This document shows positions 1 through 17,226 of a stretch of 20,000 bases of DNA, one piece after another. The notes under the pieces are model-generated. The model searched no databases, was not told where the DNA came from, and worked only from the letters and a program-made list of their open reading frames with translations. This DNA is from an uncultured virus (IMG/VR IMGVR_UViG_3300005934_000003). Its lineage: Duplodnaviria > Heunggongvirae > Uroviricota > Caudoviricetes. The first letter of the stretch is position 1. The number at the start of each line of letters is the position of its first letter. The stretch lies in IMG/VR virus record IMGVR_UViG_3300005934_000003, one strand, 5' to 3'. The position numbers were made by a program, and so were the translations under genes.

Positions 1-3000
1 TGTTAAACGTACCTGTGAATATCTTTGTCTAATTTCAATTGTAGTTTGATGTGCAGGAGATTCTGCAATTCCAATCGGTGGTGAAATGCTTATAATACCT
101 GACAAGTTTCCAGTTGATCCTGAAACATTTGATGTTTTTGTAACCTTATAAGTTACTCCATCAATACCTGCTATGTCTAAGTTATCACCAGGTCCAGGTA
201 ATCTTGAAAGTTGTTGAACTTGAATATTAGCACCTAGTTGGAATTGATCCGCATAACCGTCACCTGTAATGGTTGCAGTTGCTGATCTAAATCTTGTACC
301 TCTATTAACAAATGATGGTTGAGGTAATACACCATTTCCTAAACGTAAATCCCATTTAGGTTCTTGTGTTGATTTAGGATCAGTAATTGTCATTCTTAAA
401 ACTTGTGATTCGTTAATGTTAAGAACACCTGTTCCACCCATTCCTGAATGTGTATAACAATAGAAATATAAGTTTGCCGGAGCATCAAATTGAACTTCAA
501 TTTCTAATTTTCTATCAGTCGCTGTTTCAAAGTTAGCAATATAATTTGCATAAGTTACTGATGCACCATCAAGCAAATATCTTACACCTTTATGATATGG
601 TACACCGCCACCGTGTGTTCCGTCCTGTGTTGTAGAAATCAAGAACGGATGTGCAGGTCCTGGTGTAGAATCTTGTGGGAAATCTAACAGGGTTGGATCA
701 TTTAAATCAAACGTATATGTAATACCTTGTTGTAGTGCTAATGCTGGAGTTTCGTCAGAATCGATGTAGAATACATTTCCTAAATCAGCACCGTCTCTTC
801 CAACAGTAACAGTTTTAGTTTCAAACAATTGATACGTTGGTGTTGCACTTGTATAACCTGAACCTGGATCAAGAATTGTAAATGATCCTGCTCTACCGTT
901 TGATACTTCCATAAATGCAAATGCACCTTTACCTTTTTTGATTATATCAAGAGTATTACTTCCTGATCCTGATAAAGGATTACCTGAACTTGTTACTAAG
1001 AATTTGCCTTCGTTGTTTGGATTACCAAAATTAATTGAAGTATAATTTCTTTGTGGTGTTGTTTCTGAATACCAAGTAATAGCATCTTCTGACCAAGCCA
1101 CGTTACTACCGTTCTTTTCAAATGCTAAGAATATACCTTGTCCGTATCCAATTATATAATTTCCTGCACTTGGTAATGCTCCTGGTACTTCAACCCAAGT
1201 ATCTTTGCCGTTTCTAACGTTATAGAAAACTTTATCTGTTGTTTCGTCAACAGCAACAAATCTGTTGTTACCAAATATTAATTGTGTACAAGCAGACAAG
1301 TCTAATGGAACAAAGTTTTCGCCCCAACTAGTACCGTCAGCAGTTTTAAAATAAATTCTGTTAACAGTTGAATCAAAATCATTTGTTAATGCAATAAAGT
1401 GTCCTTGTCCCCAAACCAATCCTCTTACAGTTAGTGCACCAGTTTGTACCATAGGTGTGTCGTATGCTGTCCACGTTTGTGCATCTGTTGATTGCCACCA
1501 AGACAGTCCGTTATCGGACATAATAACATAATATCCATCACCGTATGCAACATAACGCTTGTTAGCAGTTGTTGAGTCTTCAGCAAATTCTGCCATAGAC
1601 CAAGATAGTCCATCTGTTGATGTTGCCGAAATACCTTCTTGTGCTACCGCTACAAATCTACCGCCAGCAAAAATAATGTTTTGCCAATTTAATTCTGAAC
1701 TTTGTATTTCTGGAGGAGCAGTAGGAAATGTTCCCATTGACCAACTTACACCATCACTTGAATAAGCATATTTTGATGTTCCTGTTGTACCAAATTCACT
1801 TTGTGCAATAGCAACGAATTTGTTATTACCATAAGCAACATCACTCCAGTCAATCGGCTCAGGCATATTTGTTGTAGACGCACTATATGGTGGTTTACTA
1901 AATTCTACCAATGGTTGAATTTGATAATATGCTGTGTCTAAAATAGGATCAACAATAGGTGTTCCTGAAATTAAGTGATCCCAACCGTCTTGACCGTTTG
2001 AAATTTTTCTAACCGTTGCAATTTTAGTTGATGGATCATATGTATCAACTATACCATACTGTCCAACACCACTACCTGCAATAATTCTAATTAGTTTACC
2101 TGTGTAACCTGCTGTTGAATCTTCTTCTGTGTCAGTTTGTGATAATGTTATGCTGGTTGTAGTACCACCTTGTGCGAGACCTTGTACAACGGTGTAATCG
2201 GCACCACCAGCAGTCGATGAATCACCTGGATCCATAATTCTAACTTCTTTTAATGCACCATCTCTAAATTCTAAATATTCTGTAACTAGATCGGAACCTG
2301 TACCTGAATAAGATTGAACAGCGGCGTTAGTGTAATGTTCACCTGCGTGTGTATATCCAAATAATACAATTTCGTTATCTTGATCAGTATAAACTGTTCC
2401 TACTTCTGCTTCACCTGATCTGTTATTAATAACAGCAGTAATAGGTGTTTCACTAATGTCATAACCTTCTGCAACTGATCCAAAGTCTCCATAAGAGTTG
2501 TTACCATTTGTAGCACGTATCTTACCGCCAGTTTCAGATAGATAACCGATATGACAGTAATATGTAAACACAGAAACAAGTTCTGTTAAACCTAGGTTTG
2601 TACACCATACACCAATACCATCACTGATTACCTGTGTAAAGTCGTTGGAAACAATTGACTTGTTGCCGCCGTCGTGCAAGTTACCATCAATCTTACATCC
2701 AACACAACCTGTACCTATTGTTGTTACGTTTTGTACATAAGTAGATCTTGATGTGATCCATACACTTGTATCATCTGGACCAGTACCTGGATCAAGTGAC
2801 ACAAACGCACCGCCTGTTGGTCTTCTAGTTCCAAACGCATTAACGGCACCTAAACCACCTGTTAATCCTTGAAGCGTAACATTTCTAATACCGCAACCGT
2901 TTCTAACATAAAACATATTTGAAGTTTCGTATCCAGATGCTGGCATAATTCTTGTCGAACGCAGTTCATCACCAACTAATGCAACATTGGCAGGAATTGA

Positions 3001-5700
3001 AATAGGTAATATTTCTTTGTATTCTCCTGTTTTAACAAATACCGTTGCAGGTGCTCTAGCACCTTGGTCTGCTAGAATATAATCCATTGCATACTTAATT
3101 GTTTTGAATGGATTGTTTTCTGAAGCACCTTTATCTAGTGCATCAATACCATCTGGACTTACATAGTAAACTTTAGGTATTGAACCTAGTAATGCCCAAG
3201 CAGGATGAATTGTTTCTGTACTATCAGTTGCTTTAGGAAGTGTTTTAAGAACAGTACCTAGGTCACCAATTGTTATTCTTTCATTTGTACCTTGTGAATA
3301 AGATTTAATATCACCTAATTCAGCAAGAACGTTTGTTTGAATACCTTTAATGAAGTACGCCCAAAATTCATTTAATGGTTTAGATAAATCAATATCTGGT
3401 CTACTATTAATTGTTGTTGCCGCGTGTCGTTTAATACATTGATATGAAGTGCCTGCCCATTCTACAATATCACCTAATTTATAAACTCTTGCAGAAGAGT
3501 CTTCGTTTTCCTGTAACCATCTACCTTTTAGATATTGTCCAACTGATAATAATTTCCAATTAGTATTTCCTGTAACTGTTACAGTTGCCATCAAACCATC
3601 TGTTTCGGCCATATTAGCGTGATTATAACAAGCATAGTATAATGTGCCTGGAGCATCATCTGGGATATGATAAGTTACTGATCGTGTTCCTGCAGAATTA
3701 AATCCTGCATTGTATTCTGCAAGTGTAGGAATAATTCTACCATCTAACATATAAATTACTTCGATGCCGTTTTCATATGGTTCACCGGCTGGTGTTGCTA
3801 GTATTCCGTTTGCTACCGTTGATAGATATAATGGATGATCGTTATTGCTAATATCATTTTGTTCAAATGTATATGTTGCACCTTTTGTAAACGCCAAGTT
3901 TGGAGTTCTTGCATTATCAATATAATACTTTTGTAACCCATTGTAGTTTCTTACACCAACGCTGTAAACAGTAGATTGATCTGATGCATCAGGACCATTA
4001 TTAACTAATGATTGGTGATCTCTTGTTGCTTGATAAAGGTATCCTGAATCTCTAATAACATCACCAATTTTATAGTCAATTGGATAGTTCCAATCACCTC
4101 TATGATTATACCATTTACCTAATATTTCCCAAGTTGTTTCATCTGTTGAAGGATTAACACCCTGGCTAAACTGTATTGCTTTGTATGAATATCCACCGTG
4201 TACAACAACATCCCCTGGTTGGTATGTTATGCCCGAATCCCAAGCATTATCAAAACCTATACCAGGAATGTAATCGTCAAATTTGTTTGTATCAAACGAT
4301 CCTTCGGAAGTGTGTGTTACAGAACATCTATAAACACCTTGACCGTGCGTTACTAGGTCACCTCTATAATATCTAACACCTAACGCCCATTCGCTACGAT
4401 ATTGAATACCATCAATTATAATTTCCCAGTTTACTAAATCGTTTTCTAATCCACCTGGATTTTGATCATCAACATAAACTTCGTCAGCGGCTGACATATG
4501 AGATACTAGACATCTATAAGTTACACCACCGTATCTAACTACATCGTTTTCTCTATAATGTGTTGATGTTTGCCAAGCGTTTGCCCACCAATCTGTTTTG
4601 TGAACAACGTCCCAATAACCTAATCCTTTTTCTTCTAAACCTAAATCTGCTAAATCCGAATCGTGATGAATTCTACATCTGTAAAGCACACCGTTGTATC
4701 TAACCAAGTCGCCAACAATGTAAGAATTTTCAGCAACCCAATCACCTCTCCATTGCGAGCCTCTTACGTGATTGGTCCAATATGCCGCACGTCTTTCAAA
4801 CCCAAATGAACCATCTGTTAGTGCAGTATGACCTTGTACACATCTATATACCACACCGCCTCTATGAACCAAGTCATTTAAAATATATTCTTGTGCTGTG
4901 TATGGAGGTGTTGCATTACCTCCTGAAATATAAGGATCAAAGTTTACAGCATCTACAGGTGTAGTTAAATCTGCATCAGCGTATAAACTAAATTCATTAT
5001 CCGAACGTCTGCTAATATAATAAGTGTTTCCGTTGTATTGTGTTGTACCGTTGACATCTGATATAACAACAGTTTGACCACTTGATAAATTATGTGCCGC
5101 TGTTGTTGTAACAATTGGTGGTTCTAAGTTTTGAATGTTTGTAATAGCAATTGAAGTACCACCAGTTGAAGGTCTCCACGCACCTCTCCAACGGTAACCT
5201 TCTGACATTAAATCCCATTTTGTTTTTGCTACCGTTCCTGTAACACTTAATTGTAAAACAGCACCTTGCGGATCAACTGTTTCAATTGTAACTCTAGCAT
5301 CGTTTACGCCGTCAACGCCGCCTAGTTGGCTACCAGTGATTGTGTAAACAATTTTTGGAATATAATTTTGACCTGCAACAGTAATAGCAACTGTGTATCT
5401 ATCTGCAAGTCTTGTAACTGTAAATTTTAAATCAGATCCGTTATTACTAGCAACACCTTCTGGTAATCTAGTTGCTAATGTAAATTCTGCTGTTTGTTGA
5501 TCAGTTGATGTGTATGGTTCTGGATATGTATAATCATATAGATAATCCTTAAAGAATCCGTTTGCATCTGATGTATGTGCTTCAATACAGAAATATACTC
5601 TACCACCTGATACCACAATGTCATCAAGTTTATATGTGGTACTTGTTGACCAAGTCCCTTTGTAAGAATACGTAAATCGATCTAGTTTAAATTCAGCCAT
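1..5700 (-). CDS. Giant multidomain virion/fibre protein, >1900 aa, 3'-truncated by the window: 8 CBM5/12-like W/Y repeats, E1-FCCH-like insert, 2 cupredoxin-like domains, pectin-lyase-like beta-helix, 7-bladed Asp-box propeller
   Basis: ATG at 5698-5700 (MAEFKLDRFTYSYKGTWSTSTTYKLDDIVVSGGRVYFCIEAHTS...). Manual translation of all 1900 codons to base 1 found no stop, and the last residues are ...EIRQRYSQVRLT. It is absent from the ORF track because no stop codon falls in the window. Domain calls are from motif recognition. Confidence 0.92.
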   Translation of the reverse strand, partial: MAEFKLDRFTYSYKGTWSTSTTYKLDDIVVSGGRVYFCIEAHTSDANGFFKDYLYDYTYPEPYTSTDQQTAEFTLATRLPEGVASNNGSDLKFTVTRLADRYTVAITVAGQNYIPKIVYTITGSQLGGVDGVNDARVTIETVDPQGAVLQLSVTGTVAKTKWDLMSEGYRWRGAWRPSTGGTSIAITNIQNLEPPIVTTTAAHNLSSGQTVVISDVNGTTQYNGNTYYISRRSDNEFSLYADADLTTPVDAVNFDPYISGGNATPPYTAQEYILNDLVHRGGVVYRCVQGHTALTDGSFGFERRAAYWTNHVRGSQWRGDWVAENSYIVGDLVRYNGVLYRCRIHHDSDLADLGLEEKGLGYWDVVHKTDWWANAWQTSTHYRENDVVRYGGVTYRCLVSHMSAADEVYVDDQNPGGLENDLVNWEIIIDGIQYRSEWALGVRYYRGDLVTHGQGVYRCSVTHTSEGSFDTNKFDDYIPGIGFDNAWDSGITYQPGDVVVHGGYSYKAIQFSQGVNPSTDETTWEILGKWYNHRGDWNYPIDYKIGDVIRDSGYLYQATRDHQSLVNNGPDASDQSTVYSVGVRNYNGLQKYYIDNARTPNLAFTKGATYTFEQNDISNNDHPLYLSTVANGILATPAGEPYENGIEVIYMLDGRIIPTLAEYNAGFNSAGTRSVTYHIPDDAPGTLYYACYNHANMAETDGLMATVTVTGNTNWKLLSVGQYLKGRWLQENEDSSARVYKLGDIVEWAGTSYQCIKRHAATTINSRPDIDLSKPLNEFWAYFIKGIQTNVLAELGDIKSYSQGTNERITIGDLGTVLKTLPKATDSTETIHPAWALLGSIPKVYYVSPDGIDALDKGASENNPFKTIKYAMDYILADQGARAPATVFVKTGEYKEILPISIPANVALVGDELRSTRIMPASGYETSNMFYVRNGCGIRNVTLQGLTGGLGAVNAFGTRRPTGGAFVSLDPGTGPDDTSVWITSRSTYVQNVTTIGTGCVGCKIDGNLHDGGNKSIVSNDFTQVISDGIGVWCTNLGLTELVSVFTYYCHIGYLSETGGKIRATNGNNSYGDFGSVAEGYDISETPITAVINNRSGEAEVGTVYTDQDNEIVLFGYTHAGEHYTNAAVQSYSGTGSDLVTEYLEFRDGALKEVRIMDPGDSSTAGGADYTVVQGLAQGGTTTSITLSQTDTEEDSTAGYTGKLIRIIAGSGVGQYGIVDTYDPSTKIATVRKISNGQDGWDHLISGTPIVDPILDTAYYQIQPLVEFSKPPYSASTTNMPEPIDWSDVAYGNNKFVAIAQSEFGTTGTSKYAYSSDGVSWSMGTFPTAPPEIQSSELNWQNIIFAGGRFVAVAQEGISATSTDGLSWSMAEFAEDSTTANKRYVAYGDGYYVIMSDNGLSWWQSTDAQTWTAYDTPMVQTGALTVRGLVWGQGHFIALTNDFDSTVNRIYFKTADGTSWGENFVPLDLSACTQLIFGNNRFVAVDETTDKVFYNVRNGKDTWVEVPGALPSAGNYIIGYGQGIFLAFEKNGSNVAWSEDAITWYSETTPQRNYTSINFGNPNNEGKFLVTSSGNPLSGSGSNTLDIIKKGKGAFAFMEVSNGRAGSFTILDPGSGYTSATPTYQLFETKTVTVGRDGADLGNVFYIDSDETPALALQQGITYTFDLNDPTLLDFPQDSTPGPAHPFLISTTQDGTHGGGVPYHKGVRYLLDGASVTYANYIANFETATDRKLEIEVQFDAPANLYFYCYTHSGMGGTGVLNINESQVLRMTITDPKSTQEPKWDLRLGNGVLPQPSFVNRGTRFRSATATITGDGYADQFQLGANIQVQQLSRLPGPGDNLDIAGIDGVTYKVTKTSNVSGSTGNLSGIISISPPIGIAESPAHQTTIEIRQRYSQVRLT

Positions 5701-11445: not shown

Positions 11446-11478
11446 AAGAGAAAAGGGCAAAGCGAATTTGCCCTCTTC
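11446..11478 (-). terminator. Intrinsic terminator after the 148-aa gene
   Basis: Minus strand AGGGCAAA-TTCGC-TTTGCCCT followed by TTTCTCTT. Confidence 0.8.
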
Positions 11479-11500
11479 CCGAGTTTTGATAAAACTACGA

Positions 11501-11947
11501 TTATGCGTTAGCGAAATCGTCGTCATCAACTCCAGCCAAGTCGTCGTCACCAGCCTCTTCAACTTGTGCCGCGCCATCGCTCAAGTTAGCAGTAAAGTTC
11601 CAAGCAACTGACTTACCGTCATATGCGTTAGATCCTGTGCCATCTGGAGCCTCTAGAGTTGCTTTACGTCCTGAAATTTTAGAAACTTGATAAGTTTCTG
11701 AATCGTCCATTAACATAGTGATACCCATTTCACCAGCCACTAGTGCTGACATTAGTTTACCAGTTGTTAATGTGCAAGTGTATTCAGTGTCTGAAGCACC
11801 AATTTCTGCTACTACAAACTTCTTGCTACCTTTTTGCTTTACGATGTGACCTTCAACAACTGCTGTGCCGTTGTGGAAATCAACTTTAATTTCATTTCCG
11901 CCCGCAGTCGGTTCGCCGAAGTATCTTTTATTAAGTGGTCTACCCAT
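11501..11947 (-). CDS. Hypothetical protein (148 aa, MGRPLNKRYFG...), probably an abundant virion protein
   Basis: Strong SD AAGGAG at 11955-11960, own late promoter and own terminator, located close to the MCP gene, with an acidic C-terminal tail. The function is inferred from context only. Confidence 0.8.
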   Translation of the reverse strand: MGRPLNKRYFGEPTAGGNEIKVDFHNGTAVVEGHIVKQKGSKKFVVAEIGASDTEYTCTLTTGKLMSALVAGEMGITMLMDDSETYQVSKISGRKATLEAPDGTGSNAYDGKSVAWNFTANLSDGAAQVEEAGDDDLAGVDDDDFANA

Positions 11948-11968
11948 TTGTTTTCTCCTTTATAAGAA

Positions 11969-12046
11969 GTCCGATCCGGGTTCTATCCGGTACGCAGTGG
12001 GTTAATACTGCATAAGTCCATCACTTATTGATGGAACATATCTGAC
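11969..12046 (-). ncRNA. Putative four-way-junction (cloverleaf-like) leader RNA, 78 nt
   Basis: Closing stem GTCAGAT/ATCGGAC (one A.G mismatch) encloses three arms: TCCATCA-ATAAG-TGATGGA, TATGCAGT-ATTAACCC-ACTGCGTA and CCGG-ATAGAAC-CCGG. Confidence 0.65.
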
Positions 12047-12050
12047 AACG

Positions 12051-12057
12051 TATTTAG
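12051..12057 (-). promoter_or_regulatory. T4-late-type promoter CTAAATA overlapping the stop of the 91-aa gene
   Basis: TAAATA core 4 nt upstream of the first base of the cloverleaf. Confidence 0.65.
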
Positions 12058-12329
12058 TCTACTCTTGTGAATAAGTGTAATAAGTGTGTTTGCGAGAACA
12101 ATTTTATTGCTTCGTTTATTTTGTTGGCTTGATCTTGATGCTTTATTGCTAAATGATCGCTAGGACGTCTTCTAATATCTATTTCAATGTCTGAAAGTTT
12201 TCTTACTTCGCTTTGTATTGATGAACAAAATTTTATAATATTAAATTTAAACTCAGGAGCGGTCTTACCTAATTCTCTAAGTTCCTGTTCAATGCCTTGC
12301 CAATCCAGTGATGTCACTAGTTGTTTCAT
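12054..12329 (-). CDS. Hypothetical helical protein (91 aa), probably leaderless
   Basis: ORF fills the gap after the MCP terminator. It has no SD, and TAAATA lies 5 nt before the ATG. Confidence 0.7.
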   Translation of the reverse strand: MKQLVTSLDWQGIEQELRELGKTAPEFKFNIIKFCSSIQSEVRKLSDIEIDIRRRPSDHLAIKHQDQANKINEAIKLFSQTHLLHLFTRVD

Positions 12330-12334
12330 AACTG

Positions 12335-12342
12335 TATTTAAG
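12335..12342 (-). promoter_or_regulatory. T4-late-type promoter CTTAAATA
   Basis: TAAATA core directly after the U-tract of the MCP terminator. Confidence 0.65.
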
Positions 12343-16967: not shown

Positions 16968-17213
16968 TTAAACTGCTGTGCCGTCTTGAATAGGCTGGGC
17001 GTACATCATTCTCACAAACTCTAATTCTTTTGTTTGTTCAAGTTCGCGAGCCTCTGCAGTTCTTCTTAAGGTATTAATCTGTTTAAGAGTTAATCTAGTT
17101 TTTCTAGTATCATCGGAATCGATCACAGAAATATCGTTTTCAGGACTGTATCTTTTGTCGTCCTCAAATTTTGATCCATCTTGGCTAAAATAAAAAAATT
17201 CTTTTAACAGCAT
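16968..17213 (-). CDS. Small head-module protein (81 aa), probably leaderless
   Basis: Lies directly after the portal gene, has TATAAATA 5 nt before the ATG, and has no SD. Confidence 0.75.
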   Translation of the reverse strand: MLLKEFFYFSQDGSKFEDDKRYSPENDISVIDSDDTRKTRLTLKQINTLRRTAEARELEQTKELEFVRMMYAQPIQDGTAV

Positions 17214-17218
17214 TATAA

Positions 17219-17226
17219 TATTTATA
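17219..17226 (-). promoter_or_regulatory. T4 late promoter consensus TATAAATA overlapping the portal stop codon
   Basis: Exact match to the T4 gp55-dependent late promoter consensus. Confidence 0.75.

Follow-up and report, generated by a model that had tools for sequence, protein, structure and literature searches.

Autogenous translational operators are known from the mRNA pseudoknot of T4 gene 32, from T4 gene 43 and from ribosomal-protein leaders, and the scaffolding protein of phage P22 is subject to post-transcriptional self-control. A structured leader of another kind is that of E. coli ompA, which is a 5' stabiliser hairpin. T4-type late promoters have a TATAAATA-like -10 box a few bases before the transcript start, and no -35 box. 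Here we analyse the 5' leader of a gene for a protein of 148 amino acids (aa) in a 20,000-nt stretch of DNA, hereafter the window, from an uncultured virus of the Caudoviricetes (IMG/VR record IMGVR_UViG_3300005934_000003). The leader lies between a late-promoter-like TAAATA box and the Shine-Dalgarno (SD) sequence of the gene, and is almost certainly an ordinary full-length member of the Rfam family RF02980, freshwater-2. This motif is already known and has been catalogued in Rfam for years. It reportedly stems from a screen by Weinberg et al. 2017 that yielded 224 motifs; the main text of that work (PMC5737381) is without the word 'freshwater'. No paper naming the freshwater-2 motif or RF02980 was found in the full-text literature, which did not cover the discoverers' supplement.

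The locus resembles the known autogenous operators in having a gene-specific structured 5' leader by the ribosome-binding site. It differs from them in showing no sequence or structural kinship with their leaders, in that protein binding is here a proposal, and in its gene product, which has the look of a protein of the virion surface and not of an enzyme acting on nucleic acids. With stabilisers of the ompA type it shares stable stems at the start of the mRNA, the first nucleotides possibly being paired; those stabilisers are not sequence-invariant, whereas the freshwater-2 motif is.

Results

The leader is a member of the freshwater-2 family

All genes around the 148-aa open reading frame (ORF) are on the minus strand of the window, and the leader is read on that strand throughout. 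In a scan of the whole window with cmscan and Rfam 15, RF02980 (type Cis-reg) was the sole match above threshold. It matched at 11945-12035(-) with 77.3 bits against a gathering score of 49.9, and covered model positions 1-84 of 84, with an E-value of 1.3e-10 for the 20-kb window and 2.6e-12 when 401 nt were searched. The model spans three hairpins, which we call P1, P2 and P3, followed by the spacer, the SD and the AUG, and the match stops at the ATG of the 148-aa gene. The leader shows the consensus acUUAUGC...GCGUA and the loop UAGAAC of the family, arranged in three tandem hairpins in both the Rfam alignment and the centroid fold.

The leader thus has the same three hairpins, the same conserved linker and loop letters, and the same SD and AUG at its 3' end as freshwater-2. 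The Rfam model, on the other hand, begins at P1, and includes neither the promoter-like box nor the 5' GU(U)C that is conserved in the leaders, nor the closing stem P0 seen in 81 of 185 of them. Distant relatives with a shortened P1 fall below the family cut-off, at 40-47 bits. The original prediction, made from the sequence alone, had described an undescribed cis-regulatory RNA of a phage, or a tRNA mimic, and had noted that a match to an existing Rfam family would remove its novelty; such a match was found in RF02980. The description as a phage cis-regulatory leader fits, as the element is conserved, structured, linked to one gene and placed between a late-promoter-like box and an SD.

Predicted fold of the leader in the window

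The features of the locus are listed in Table 1. Four nucleotides (CGUU) separate the TAAATA box from a structured stretch of 78 nt (12046-11969(-)), another 8 nt, UUCUUAUA, lead to the SD, and AAAACAA stands between the SD and the AUG (11947-11945). The minimum-free-energy (MFE) structure from RNAfold has -28.8 kcal/mol and contains P0, P1, P2 and P3. P0 is formed by GUC-A-GAU and AUC-G-GAC, giving 6 pairs over 7 positions, P1 has 7 bp and P2 8 bp, and P3, CCGG-AUAGAAC-CCGG, abuts P0 directly. The loops of the three arms, as read from the sequence, are AAUAAGU, UAUUAACCCA and AUAGAAC. The four-way junction that had been drawn for these 78 nt, with a closing stem of seven positions, arms of 7-8 bp and the CCGG-ATAGAAC-CCGG arm stacked on the closing stem, was therefore reproduced at its stated distances of 4 nt from TAAATA and 8 nt from the SD. 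The centroid structure retains P1-P3 only and drops P0. The stability of the single-sequence fold is modest (z -2.03; 9 of 200 shuffled sequences folded equally well), and it is because of the Rfam match and the covarying relatives described below that the fold is taken to be more than chance.

In the MFE structure the SD pairs with CUUCU, and its probability of being unpaired is 0.08 in the window and 0.03-0.08 across the window and its closest relatives. This pairing is confined to the AUCGGACUUC subclass, and most members of the family are without it.

Table 1. Features of the leader and of the genes on either side, numbered along the window.
Feature	Position	Strand	Basis or remark
Upstream 91-aa ORF	12054-12329	-	Stop codon overlaps TAAATA
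TAAATA box, T4-type late-promoter-like	12051..12056	-	Sequence; bases 1-3 form the stop codon of the 91-aa ORF
P0, 5' strand GUCAGAU	12040..12046	-	MFE; absent from centroid
P1 hairpin UCCAUC/GAUGGA	12017..12035	-	RNAfold and Rfam alignment
P2 hairpin UAUGCAG/CUGCGUA	11991..12014	-	RNAfold and Rfam alignment; lower stem U-A, A-U, U.G, G-C invariant
P3 hairpin CCGG-AUAGAAC-CCGG	11976..11990	-	RNAfold and Rfam alignment; loop UAGAAC invariant
P0, 3' strand AUCGGAC	11969..11975	-	MFE; pair counts in long-form leaders
CUUCU, able to pair with SD AGGAG (11955-11959)	11965..11969	-	MFE
Shine-Dalgarno AAGGAG	11955..11960	-	Sequence; within conserved AAGGAGAAAACAAAUG
148-aa gene, MGRPLNKRYFG...	11501..11947	-	Two predicted SH3-like barrels and acidic tail; very probably a virion-protein family
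Terminator-like 14-bp hairpin past the stop codon of the 148-aa gene	11448..11480	-	-22.3 kcal/mol, z -5.22

The leader travels with one gene family

A search of IMG/VR gave 203 relatives of the 148-aa protein, of which the best 80 were taken, and 20 of those 80 loci were scanned with Rfam. Freshwater-2 was above its cut-off in 16 of the 20, each match ending at the ATG of the homologue, and in the other four loci (L015, L053, L071 and L077) the core was present in a short form. At least 120 further stretches came from a scan for the pattern of conserved letters. Among the sources gathered, 200 of 201 had the exact core, the exception (L039) having one letter changed. The downstream ORF began with MGRP in 196 of the 197 cases that could be parsed and with MARP in the other one. 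In 199 of the 200 sources with the pattern, a TAAATA lies no more than 60 nt before the core, and the single miss was cut by a contig end.

An independent set was collected by starting from the protein. Searches with the single distant proteins P0172 and P0224 returned no related loci; a profile of distant members (A3) succeeded, and gave 80 further loci whose proteins are 42-78% identical to a distant member. The core was present in 74 of these 80 loci, exactly in 46 and as a recognisable P2-P3 core in 28. Three of the remaining six have a UUACG...CGUA variant, in which the U.G pair is changed to C-G, and each of the other three is the second paralogue of a tandem whose first member bears the leader.

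Six records of 44-176 kb contained one copy of the leader each, and a record of 199 kb contained two leader-gene units in tandem. In this last record (G009, from which L222 was taken), the tandem MGRP paralogues at 141694-142959 each have their own freshwater-2 leader. In two other records (G006 and G007, the sources of L211 and L212), the leader stands only before the first copy, of ~385-394 aa, and the second copy of 136 aa is without it. The leader also precedes paralogues of 348-372 aa. We conclude that the leader and the N-terminal domain of the gene family travel as a unit. In the Rfam scan of the window, no freshwater-2 leader was found before the major capsid gene 500 nt upstream.

Other structured RNAs scored above their Rfam cut-offs between the capsid gene and the leader in some of the scanned loci. 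A glutamine riboswitch (RF01739) lies there in 8 of 20, 300-700 nt upstream of the leader, a manA RNA (RF01745) precedes the leader in L002, and three tRNA genes do so in L019; the loci with such extra Rfam RNAs are L002, L014, L015, L019, L035, L070, L071 and L074. The window has none of them, and the 91-aa ORF occupies that place.

P2 and P3 covary around an invariant core

An alignment of 141 distinct leaders (A1) was made with MAFFT and folded with RNAalifold. A1 kept only leaders matching GG[AG]CTTATG...CGTA...TAGAAC, and 80 of the loci on which it draws had been retrieved by that very pattern. Because of this selection the invariance within A1 is partly built in, and the protein-first set is the better check of it. 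A pooled set comprised 185 distinct leaders, 81 of a long form with the 3' strand of P0 and 104 of a short form.

RNAalifold recovered P2 (7 bp) and P3 from A1. P2 was 100% paired in the 141 leaders and also in the 81 long-form leaders, with two covarying pairs; in A1, pair 80/96 was CG in 122, GC in 16 and GU in 3 leaders, and pair 81/95 was UA in 67, GC in 54 and AU in 20. All four pairs of P3 changed on both sides while remaining 100% paired in the 81 long-form leaders; in A1, pair 103/113 was AU in 63 leaders, GC in 40, UG in 22 and CG in 16. P1 was paired in 95.5% of cells in the long form, with two pairs changing on both sides, and was reduced or absent in some distant members. Over all helices of the long form, 91.6% of cells were paired, as compared with 81.3% in shuffled alignments, and 0 of 500 shuffles reached 91.6%. 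The paired bases UUAUG/CGUA and the loop UAGAAC were invariant in 141 of 141 leaders of the pattern-selected A1, whereas P1, upper P2 and P3 stems vary freely in sequence. The comparison of relatives that the original prediction had called for therefore gives strong support to P2 and P3.

The closing stem behaves differently. Its 3' strand, AU-N-GGAC after P3, was found in 81 of the 185 leaders, and the other 104 run from P3, usually GAC-CUAGAAC-GUC, almost straight into the SD. The 5' GU(U)C stands at a fixed distance from TAAATA in 160 of the 185; in the first set, 55 of the 70 short-form leaders keep it without having a 3' partner for it. Among the 81 long-form leaders, five positions of P0 pair in 75-79 (18-93, C-G 79; 12-95, G-C 78; 17-94, U-A 78 and U.G 2; 21-90, A-U 78 and G.U 2; 22-89, U-A 75), and two central positions are mostly mismatched (19-92, unpaired in 74; 20-91, unpaired in 54, G-C in 20, A-U in 3 and G.U in 3). 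Changes on both sides were seen in just one pair of P0. Some unusual members are consistent with a real P0 helix, namely L186 (GUCUAAU/GUUGGAC) and L096 and L164 (GUUCAA/UUGGAC). From these counts, P0 appears to be a conserved pairable feature of about half of the family, the window included, with thin covariation support. As it is absent from 104 of 185 leaders, the four-way junction is at best the shape of a subclass. Of the cloverleaf expected in homologous leaders, then, P2 and P3 are kept and covary, and the closing stem is limited to those 81 leaders, where it is nearly invariant.

The surroundings of the start codon were compared in the same leaders. The SD was predicted to be open (probability of being unpaired above 0.5) in 148 of 184 distinct leaders, no conserved anti-SD was found across the 184, and the structured part ends between 1 and about 20 nt from the SD. 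A pairing of the P2 loop L2 (ACCCAC) with the UGGG of AUG-GGN would give at most CCCA:UGGG, 4 bp, and was not supported: the glycine codon is mostly GGA, with which a fifth pair fails, and L2 variants without CCC retain AUGGGA. This pairing is beyond the reach of covariation because the start region is fixed by Met-Gly coding. Likewise, the 5' GUUC and the GAAC of the P3 loop are complementary and both invariant, which puts their pairing beyond a covariation test.

One trend concerns GGAC, the end of the long-form tail. At codons 2-3 (window 11939-11944) this sequence occurs in 0 of 81 long-form leaders, all of which use AGA for Arg3, and GGA-CGN is present there in 54 of 103 short-form leaders. 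In 14 supported independent contrasts in leader form on a quick protein tree, the codon form was opposite in about 7, the same in 0.2 and without difference in 6.8, with a median sign-test p of 0.016 (range 0.002-0.22) on a poorly resolved tree with 24 changes of form. The trend is a hint that the RNA needs a GGAC downstream of P3, be it in the leader tail or right behind the AUG; it may reflect a movable second GGAC element or a codon habit of lineages. No fine covariation was seen between the base after the 5' GUC and codons 2-4.

The leader is not tRNA-like in its details

The cloverleaf had been compared with a tRNA, whose T-arm stacks on the acceptor stem, and had already been set apart from canonical tRNAs, which agrees with our results. 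ARAGORN found 0 tRNA genes in the window. In 11800-12200 no match to the tRNA clan was obtained at E<=1, and only freshwater-2 scored among 4227 Rfam families. The D-loop GG, the T-loop UUC(RA), a 7-nt anticodon loop and a CCA after P0 are all absent from the leader sequence, and the arm lengths and linkers in the Rfam alignment depart from tRNA rules. The leader shares with tRNAs and viral tRNA-like structures its size and, in one subclass only, a possible four-way junction; it is without their defining loops and CCA end and fails every detector. As the acceptor-like stem is moreover missing in 104 of 185 leaders, the suggestion of a tRNA mimic is left unsupported.

The 148-aa protein very probably belongs to a family of virion components

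The 148-aa protein had no Pfam or PHROG family, and tblastn against 50,697 phage records gave no match. In a large collection, 1421 proteins matched it at E<=0.001; among the best 120 of these, few had a source name and all of those were 'hypothetical protein'. An exhaustive profile-free search returned 221 cluster representatives at E<=0.001, and the same domain of ~130 aa is N-terminal in many representatives of 200-1022 aa. Of 25 longer representatives scanned, 12 had C-terminal fn3, PA14/GLEYA, Laminin_G_3 or Big_2 domains and 13 had no confident family. This layout suggests a virion-surface protein with an anchoring N-terminal domain.

The AlphaFold2 model of the 148-aa protein is all-beta, with a predicted local distance difference test (pLDDT) score of 88.7 and a predicted template-modelling (pTM) score of 0.85, and is read as two SH3-like barrels. 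Foldseek against the PDB gave no match at E<=0.001, and the VIA matches were generic Tudor, chromo, SH3 and KOW-type barrels only, with Z<=4.8. In BFVD the model matched uncharacterised proteins of jumbo phage Atu_ph07 (E 3.6e-7, TM 0.67) and, more weakly, a protein from a Yersinia jumbo phage that is annotated as possibly a surface protein. Atlas scores did not exceed 0.85, and are a lead only. The isoelectric point (pI) of the whole protein is 4.45, residues 1-50 being basic (pI 9.6) and the ...DDDDF tail acidic (pI 4.05).

In a profile search of three cultured jumbo phages, Atu_ph07 and PA5oct each proved to have two homologues, and the Vibrio phage had none. The better PA5oct homologue is EST35_0383 (E 8.4e-17; 326 aa; start MGRPIKSDWFGE; MK797984.1 262386-263366, L289 2887-3867), which is annotated as 'structural protein' with the note 'ESI-MS/MS'; from the record, we take this note to mean detection by mass spectrometry. 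The protein family is thus very probably a virion component, as judged from this homologue and the domain layouts. EST35_0383 has a leader of 25 nt after TAAATA (CTAAATAG), with no hairpins and no Rfam match. Since this homologue does without a freshwater-2 leader, the RNA is an add-on of the aquatic lineage, and the gene family is older and wider. The genes directly after the capsid gene in PA5oct and in Vibrio phage 2.275.O were also considered as homologues, and were rejected at an hhalign probability below 1%.

Promoter, transcripts and phage context

The sequence at the window leader that was compared with the T4-type late-promoter consensus is CTAAATAC. Transcription probably starts a few bases after the TAAATA box, and the 5' strand of P0 would then probably be at or near the 5' end of the mRNA. 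The window contains 9 TAAATA sites on the minus strand and 3 on the plus strand. Two of them stand only 11 nt before an ATG, at 12329-12340(-) (TAAATAcagttATG; the 91-aa ORF) and at 17213-17224(-) (TAAATAttataATG; an 81-aa ORF). If these are late promoters, the mRNAs of the 91-aa and 81-aa ORFs would be leaderless or nearly so and without an SD.

Twelve metatranscriptome runs share words with the region, and the contigs of four were compared. In two RNA libraries, contigs matched the window over 11724-12033 (0 differences) and over 11631-12004 (1 difference); being assembled, they show neither strand nor ends and may reflect DNA carry-over, so that transcription is unproven by them. None of the contigs of the four runs covers 12038-12119 or reaches the predicted start, and they are uninformative on transcript ends. 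The leader and its gene had been described as a self-contained monocistronic unit with its own terminator. A terminator is plausible in view of the hairpin past the stop codon (Table 1). A monocistronic unit is plausible too, but no terminator was found between the 91-aa ORF and the leader, and since the stop codon of that ORF overlaps the TAAATA box, read-through from the promoter-like site at 12340 is possible.

The portal encoded in the window is of the T4 type (Pfam Portal_T4, 3.4e-110) and the major capsid protein of the Gp23 type (1.5e-97); a prohead protease and giant proteins like those of baseplate wedges and tail fibres are encoded as well. The ORF at 1-5700(-) is open-ended and exceeds 1900 aa; it has seven CBM_5_12 carbohydrate-binding repeats and matches to tail-fibre or baseplate PHROGs, and upstream of it lies a baseplate-wedge-like protein of 1023 aa. 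The IMG/VR record has 43.8 kb and is rated 15% complete, which would put the genome at around 300 kb. Jumbo phages PA5oct, Phosso and Vibrio phage 2.275.O have capsid proteins with 66-68% identity to that of the window, and the gene order portal, small ORF, protease, scaffold, capsid is shared with PA5oct and the Vibrio phage. The phage is an uncultured aquatic jumbo myovirus with a head module like that of PA5oct.

Discussion

We propose that the leader is a protein-bound, probably autogenous, translational operator, to which we assign a probability of about 40%. In this proposal the mRNA would start just past TAAATA and fold into three tandem hairpins, which in the subclass of the window P0 would close into a four-way junction. 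P2, with UUAUG...CGUA and its fixed U.G, and the P3 loop UAGAAC would make up an invariant platform near an invariant strong SD, and this P2-P3 platform would serve as a sequence-specific protein-binding site beside the ribosome-binding site, within reach of the ribosome. The likeliest binder would be the product of the gene itself before its incorporation in virions, and binding would tie the synthesis of this virion protein to its consumption. The letters of the core are invariant (in the pattern-selected set) while the neighbouring stems drift, which argues for specific recognition rather than bulk stability. As there is no conserved anti-SD and the SD is predicted to be open, a bound factor fits better than refolding. 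The linkage also supports an operator, because the leader is tied to one gene family and duplicates with it, and the more abundant capsid gene has none; the basic N-terminal part, the acidic tail and the predicted SH3/Tudor/KOW-type barrels of the protein were counted on the same side.

A more specific version, which we hold only tentatively, is an assembly-coupled autogenous operator in which unassembled two-barrel protein would bind P2-P3 and block the ribosome. It would perhaps also bind the second GGAC, just after P3 or at codons 2-3, and the bound state in the subclass of the window would be the tRNA-shaped four-way junction. The protein would then be made only as fast as capsids or tails consume it.

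Several points weigh against an operator. Protein binding by the leader is an inference throughout, and Rfam gives the type of RF02980 as 'Cis-reg' and nothing further. The fold matches of the protein are generic (best Z 4.8), and SH3-like barrels are also widespread among proteins that are purely structural. The cultured jumbo phages have homologues that function without the leader, EST35_0383 of PA5oct being one, and the longer paralogues with fn3, PA14/GLEYA, Laminin_G_3 or Big_2 domains resemble virion-surface proteins and not regulators. In addition, the invariant bases could equally be suited to contacts with the ribosome or with a ligand.

Somewhat less probable than the operator is that the leader is a constitutive 5' stabiliser, a translation enhancer or both, in which the 5' hairpins and P0 would protect the late mRNA from decay that depends on its 5' end and present an open, very strong SD, so that more of an abundant virion protein would be made. 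The leader would begin right past the promoter-like box, from which the 5' GU(U)C keeps a fixed distance in 160 of 185 leaders, and P0 would pair the first bases in 81 of the 185. An open SD is predicted for 148 of 184, and the gene product is of a virion-protein family. Two RNA-library contigs cover the leader and the 5' part of the gene, although transcription is not thereby proven. Such a function needs stems and not letters, yet UUAUG/CGUA and UAGAAC are fixed while the other stems drift, and the capsid gene and other late genes have no such leader. The SD of the window itself is predicted to be paired (probability of being unpaired 0.08). In a further reading the leader is a riboswitch: P2-P3, with or without P1 and P0, might be an aptamer for a small molecule indicative of the state of the infected cell, and would thereby adjust how much of the late gene is translated. 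In favour of this, the covarying scaffold has invariant nucleotides in its loops and at its helix junctions, and the related loci that carry a glutamine riboswitch or a manA RNA a few hundred bases upstream indicate that these phages use such elements. We regard a riboswitch as improbable all the same: no expression platform is conserved, there being no terminator between leader and ORF and no conserved anti-SD; the SD is predicted to be accessible in 148 of 184 leaders, its pairing with CUUCU (CUUCU:AGGAG) being specific to a subclass; P1 is reduced or absent in some distant members; and the controlled gene is that of a virion protein without a metabolic link.

By far the least probable of these functions is a tRNA mimic, either as a substrate of RNase P or RNase Z or as a decoy for anticodon nucleases or other tRNA-binding factors. 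The predicted shape of the subclass is a tRNA-sized four-way junction with an arm bearing a 7-nt loop beside the closing stem, and genuine tRNA genes lie near some related loci. Against it stand the lack of any ARAGORN match, freshwater-2 as the only match at E<=1 in 11800-12200, the missing D-loop GG, T-loop UUC and CCA, the arm lengths and linkers, which are not tRNA-like, and the closing stem, which is absent from 104 of 185 leaders and mismatched at its two central positions in most of the others. The probability left by the operator, the stabiliser or enhancer, the riboswitch and the tRNA mimic goes to something else.

As a discovery, the RNA is of little weight. The added value lies in the gene and phage context of freshwater-2, possibly not in print, which places it in PA5oct-like aquatic jumbo phages, behind a late-promoter-like box, in a one-to-one tie with a gene family, and in long and short forms. 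With this context the function of freshwater-2 is testable with one purified protein and one RNA of 110 nt. If the assembly-coupled operator is true, it would be the first function for freshwater-2, and an uncommon example of a phage structural protein that regulates its own mRNA via a dedicated RNA fold.

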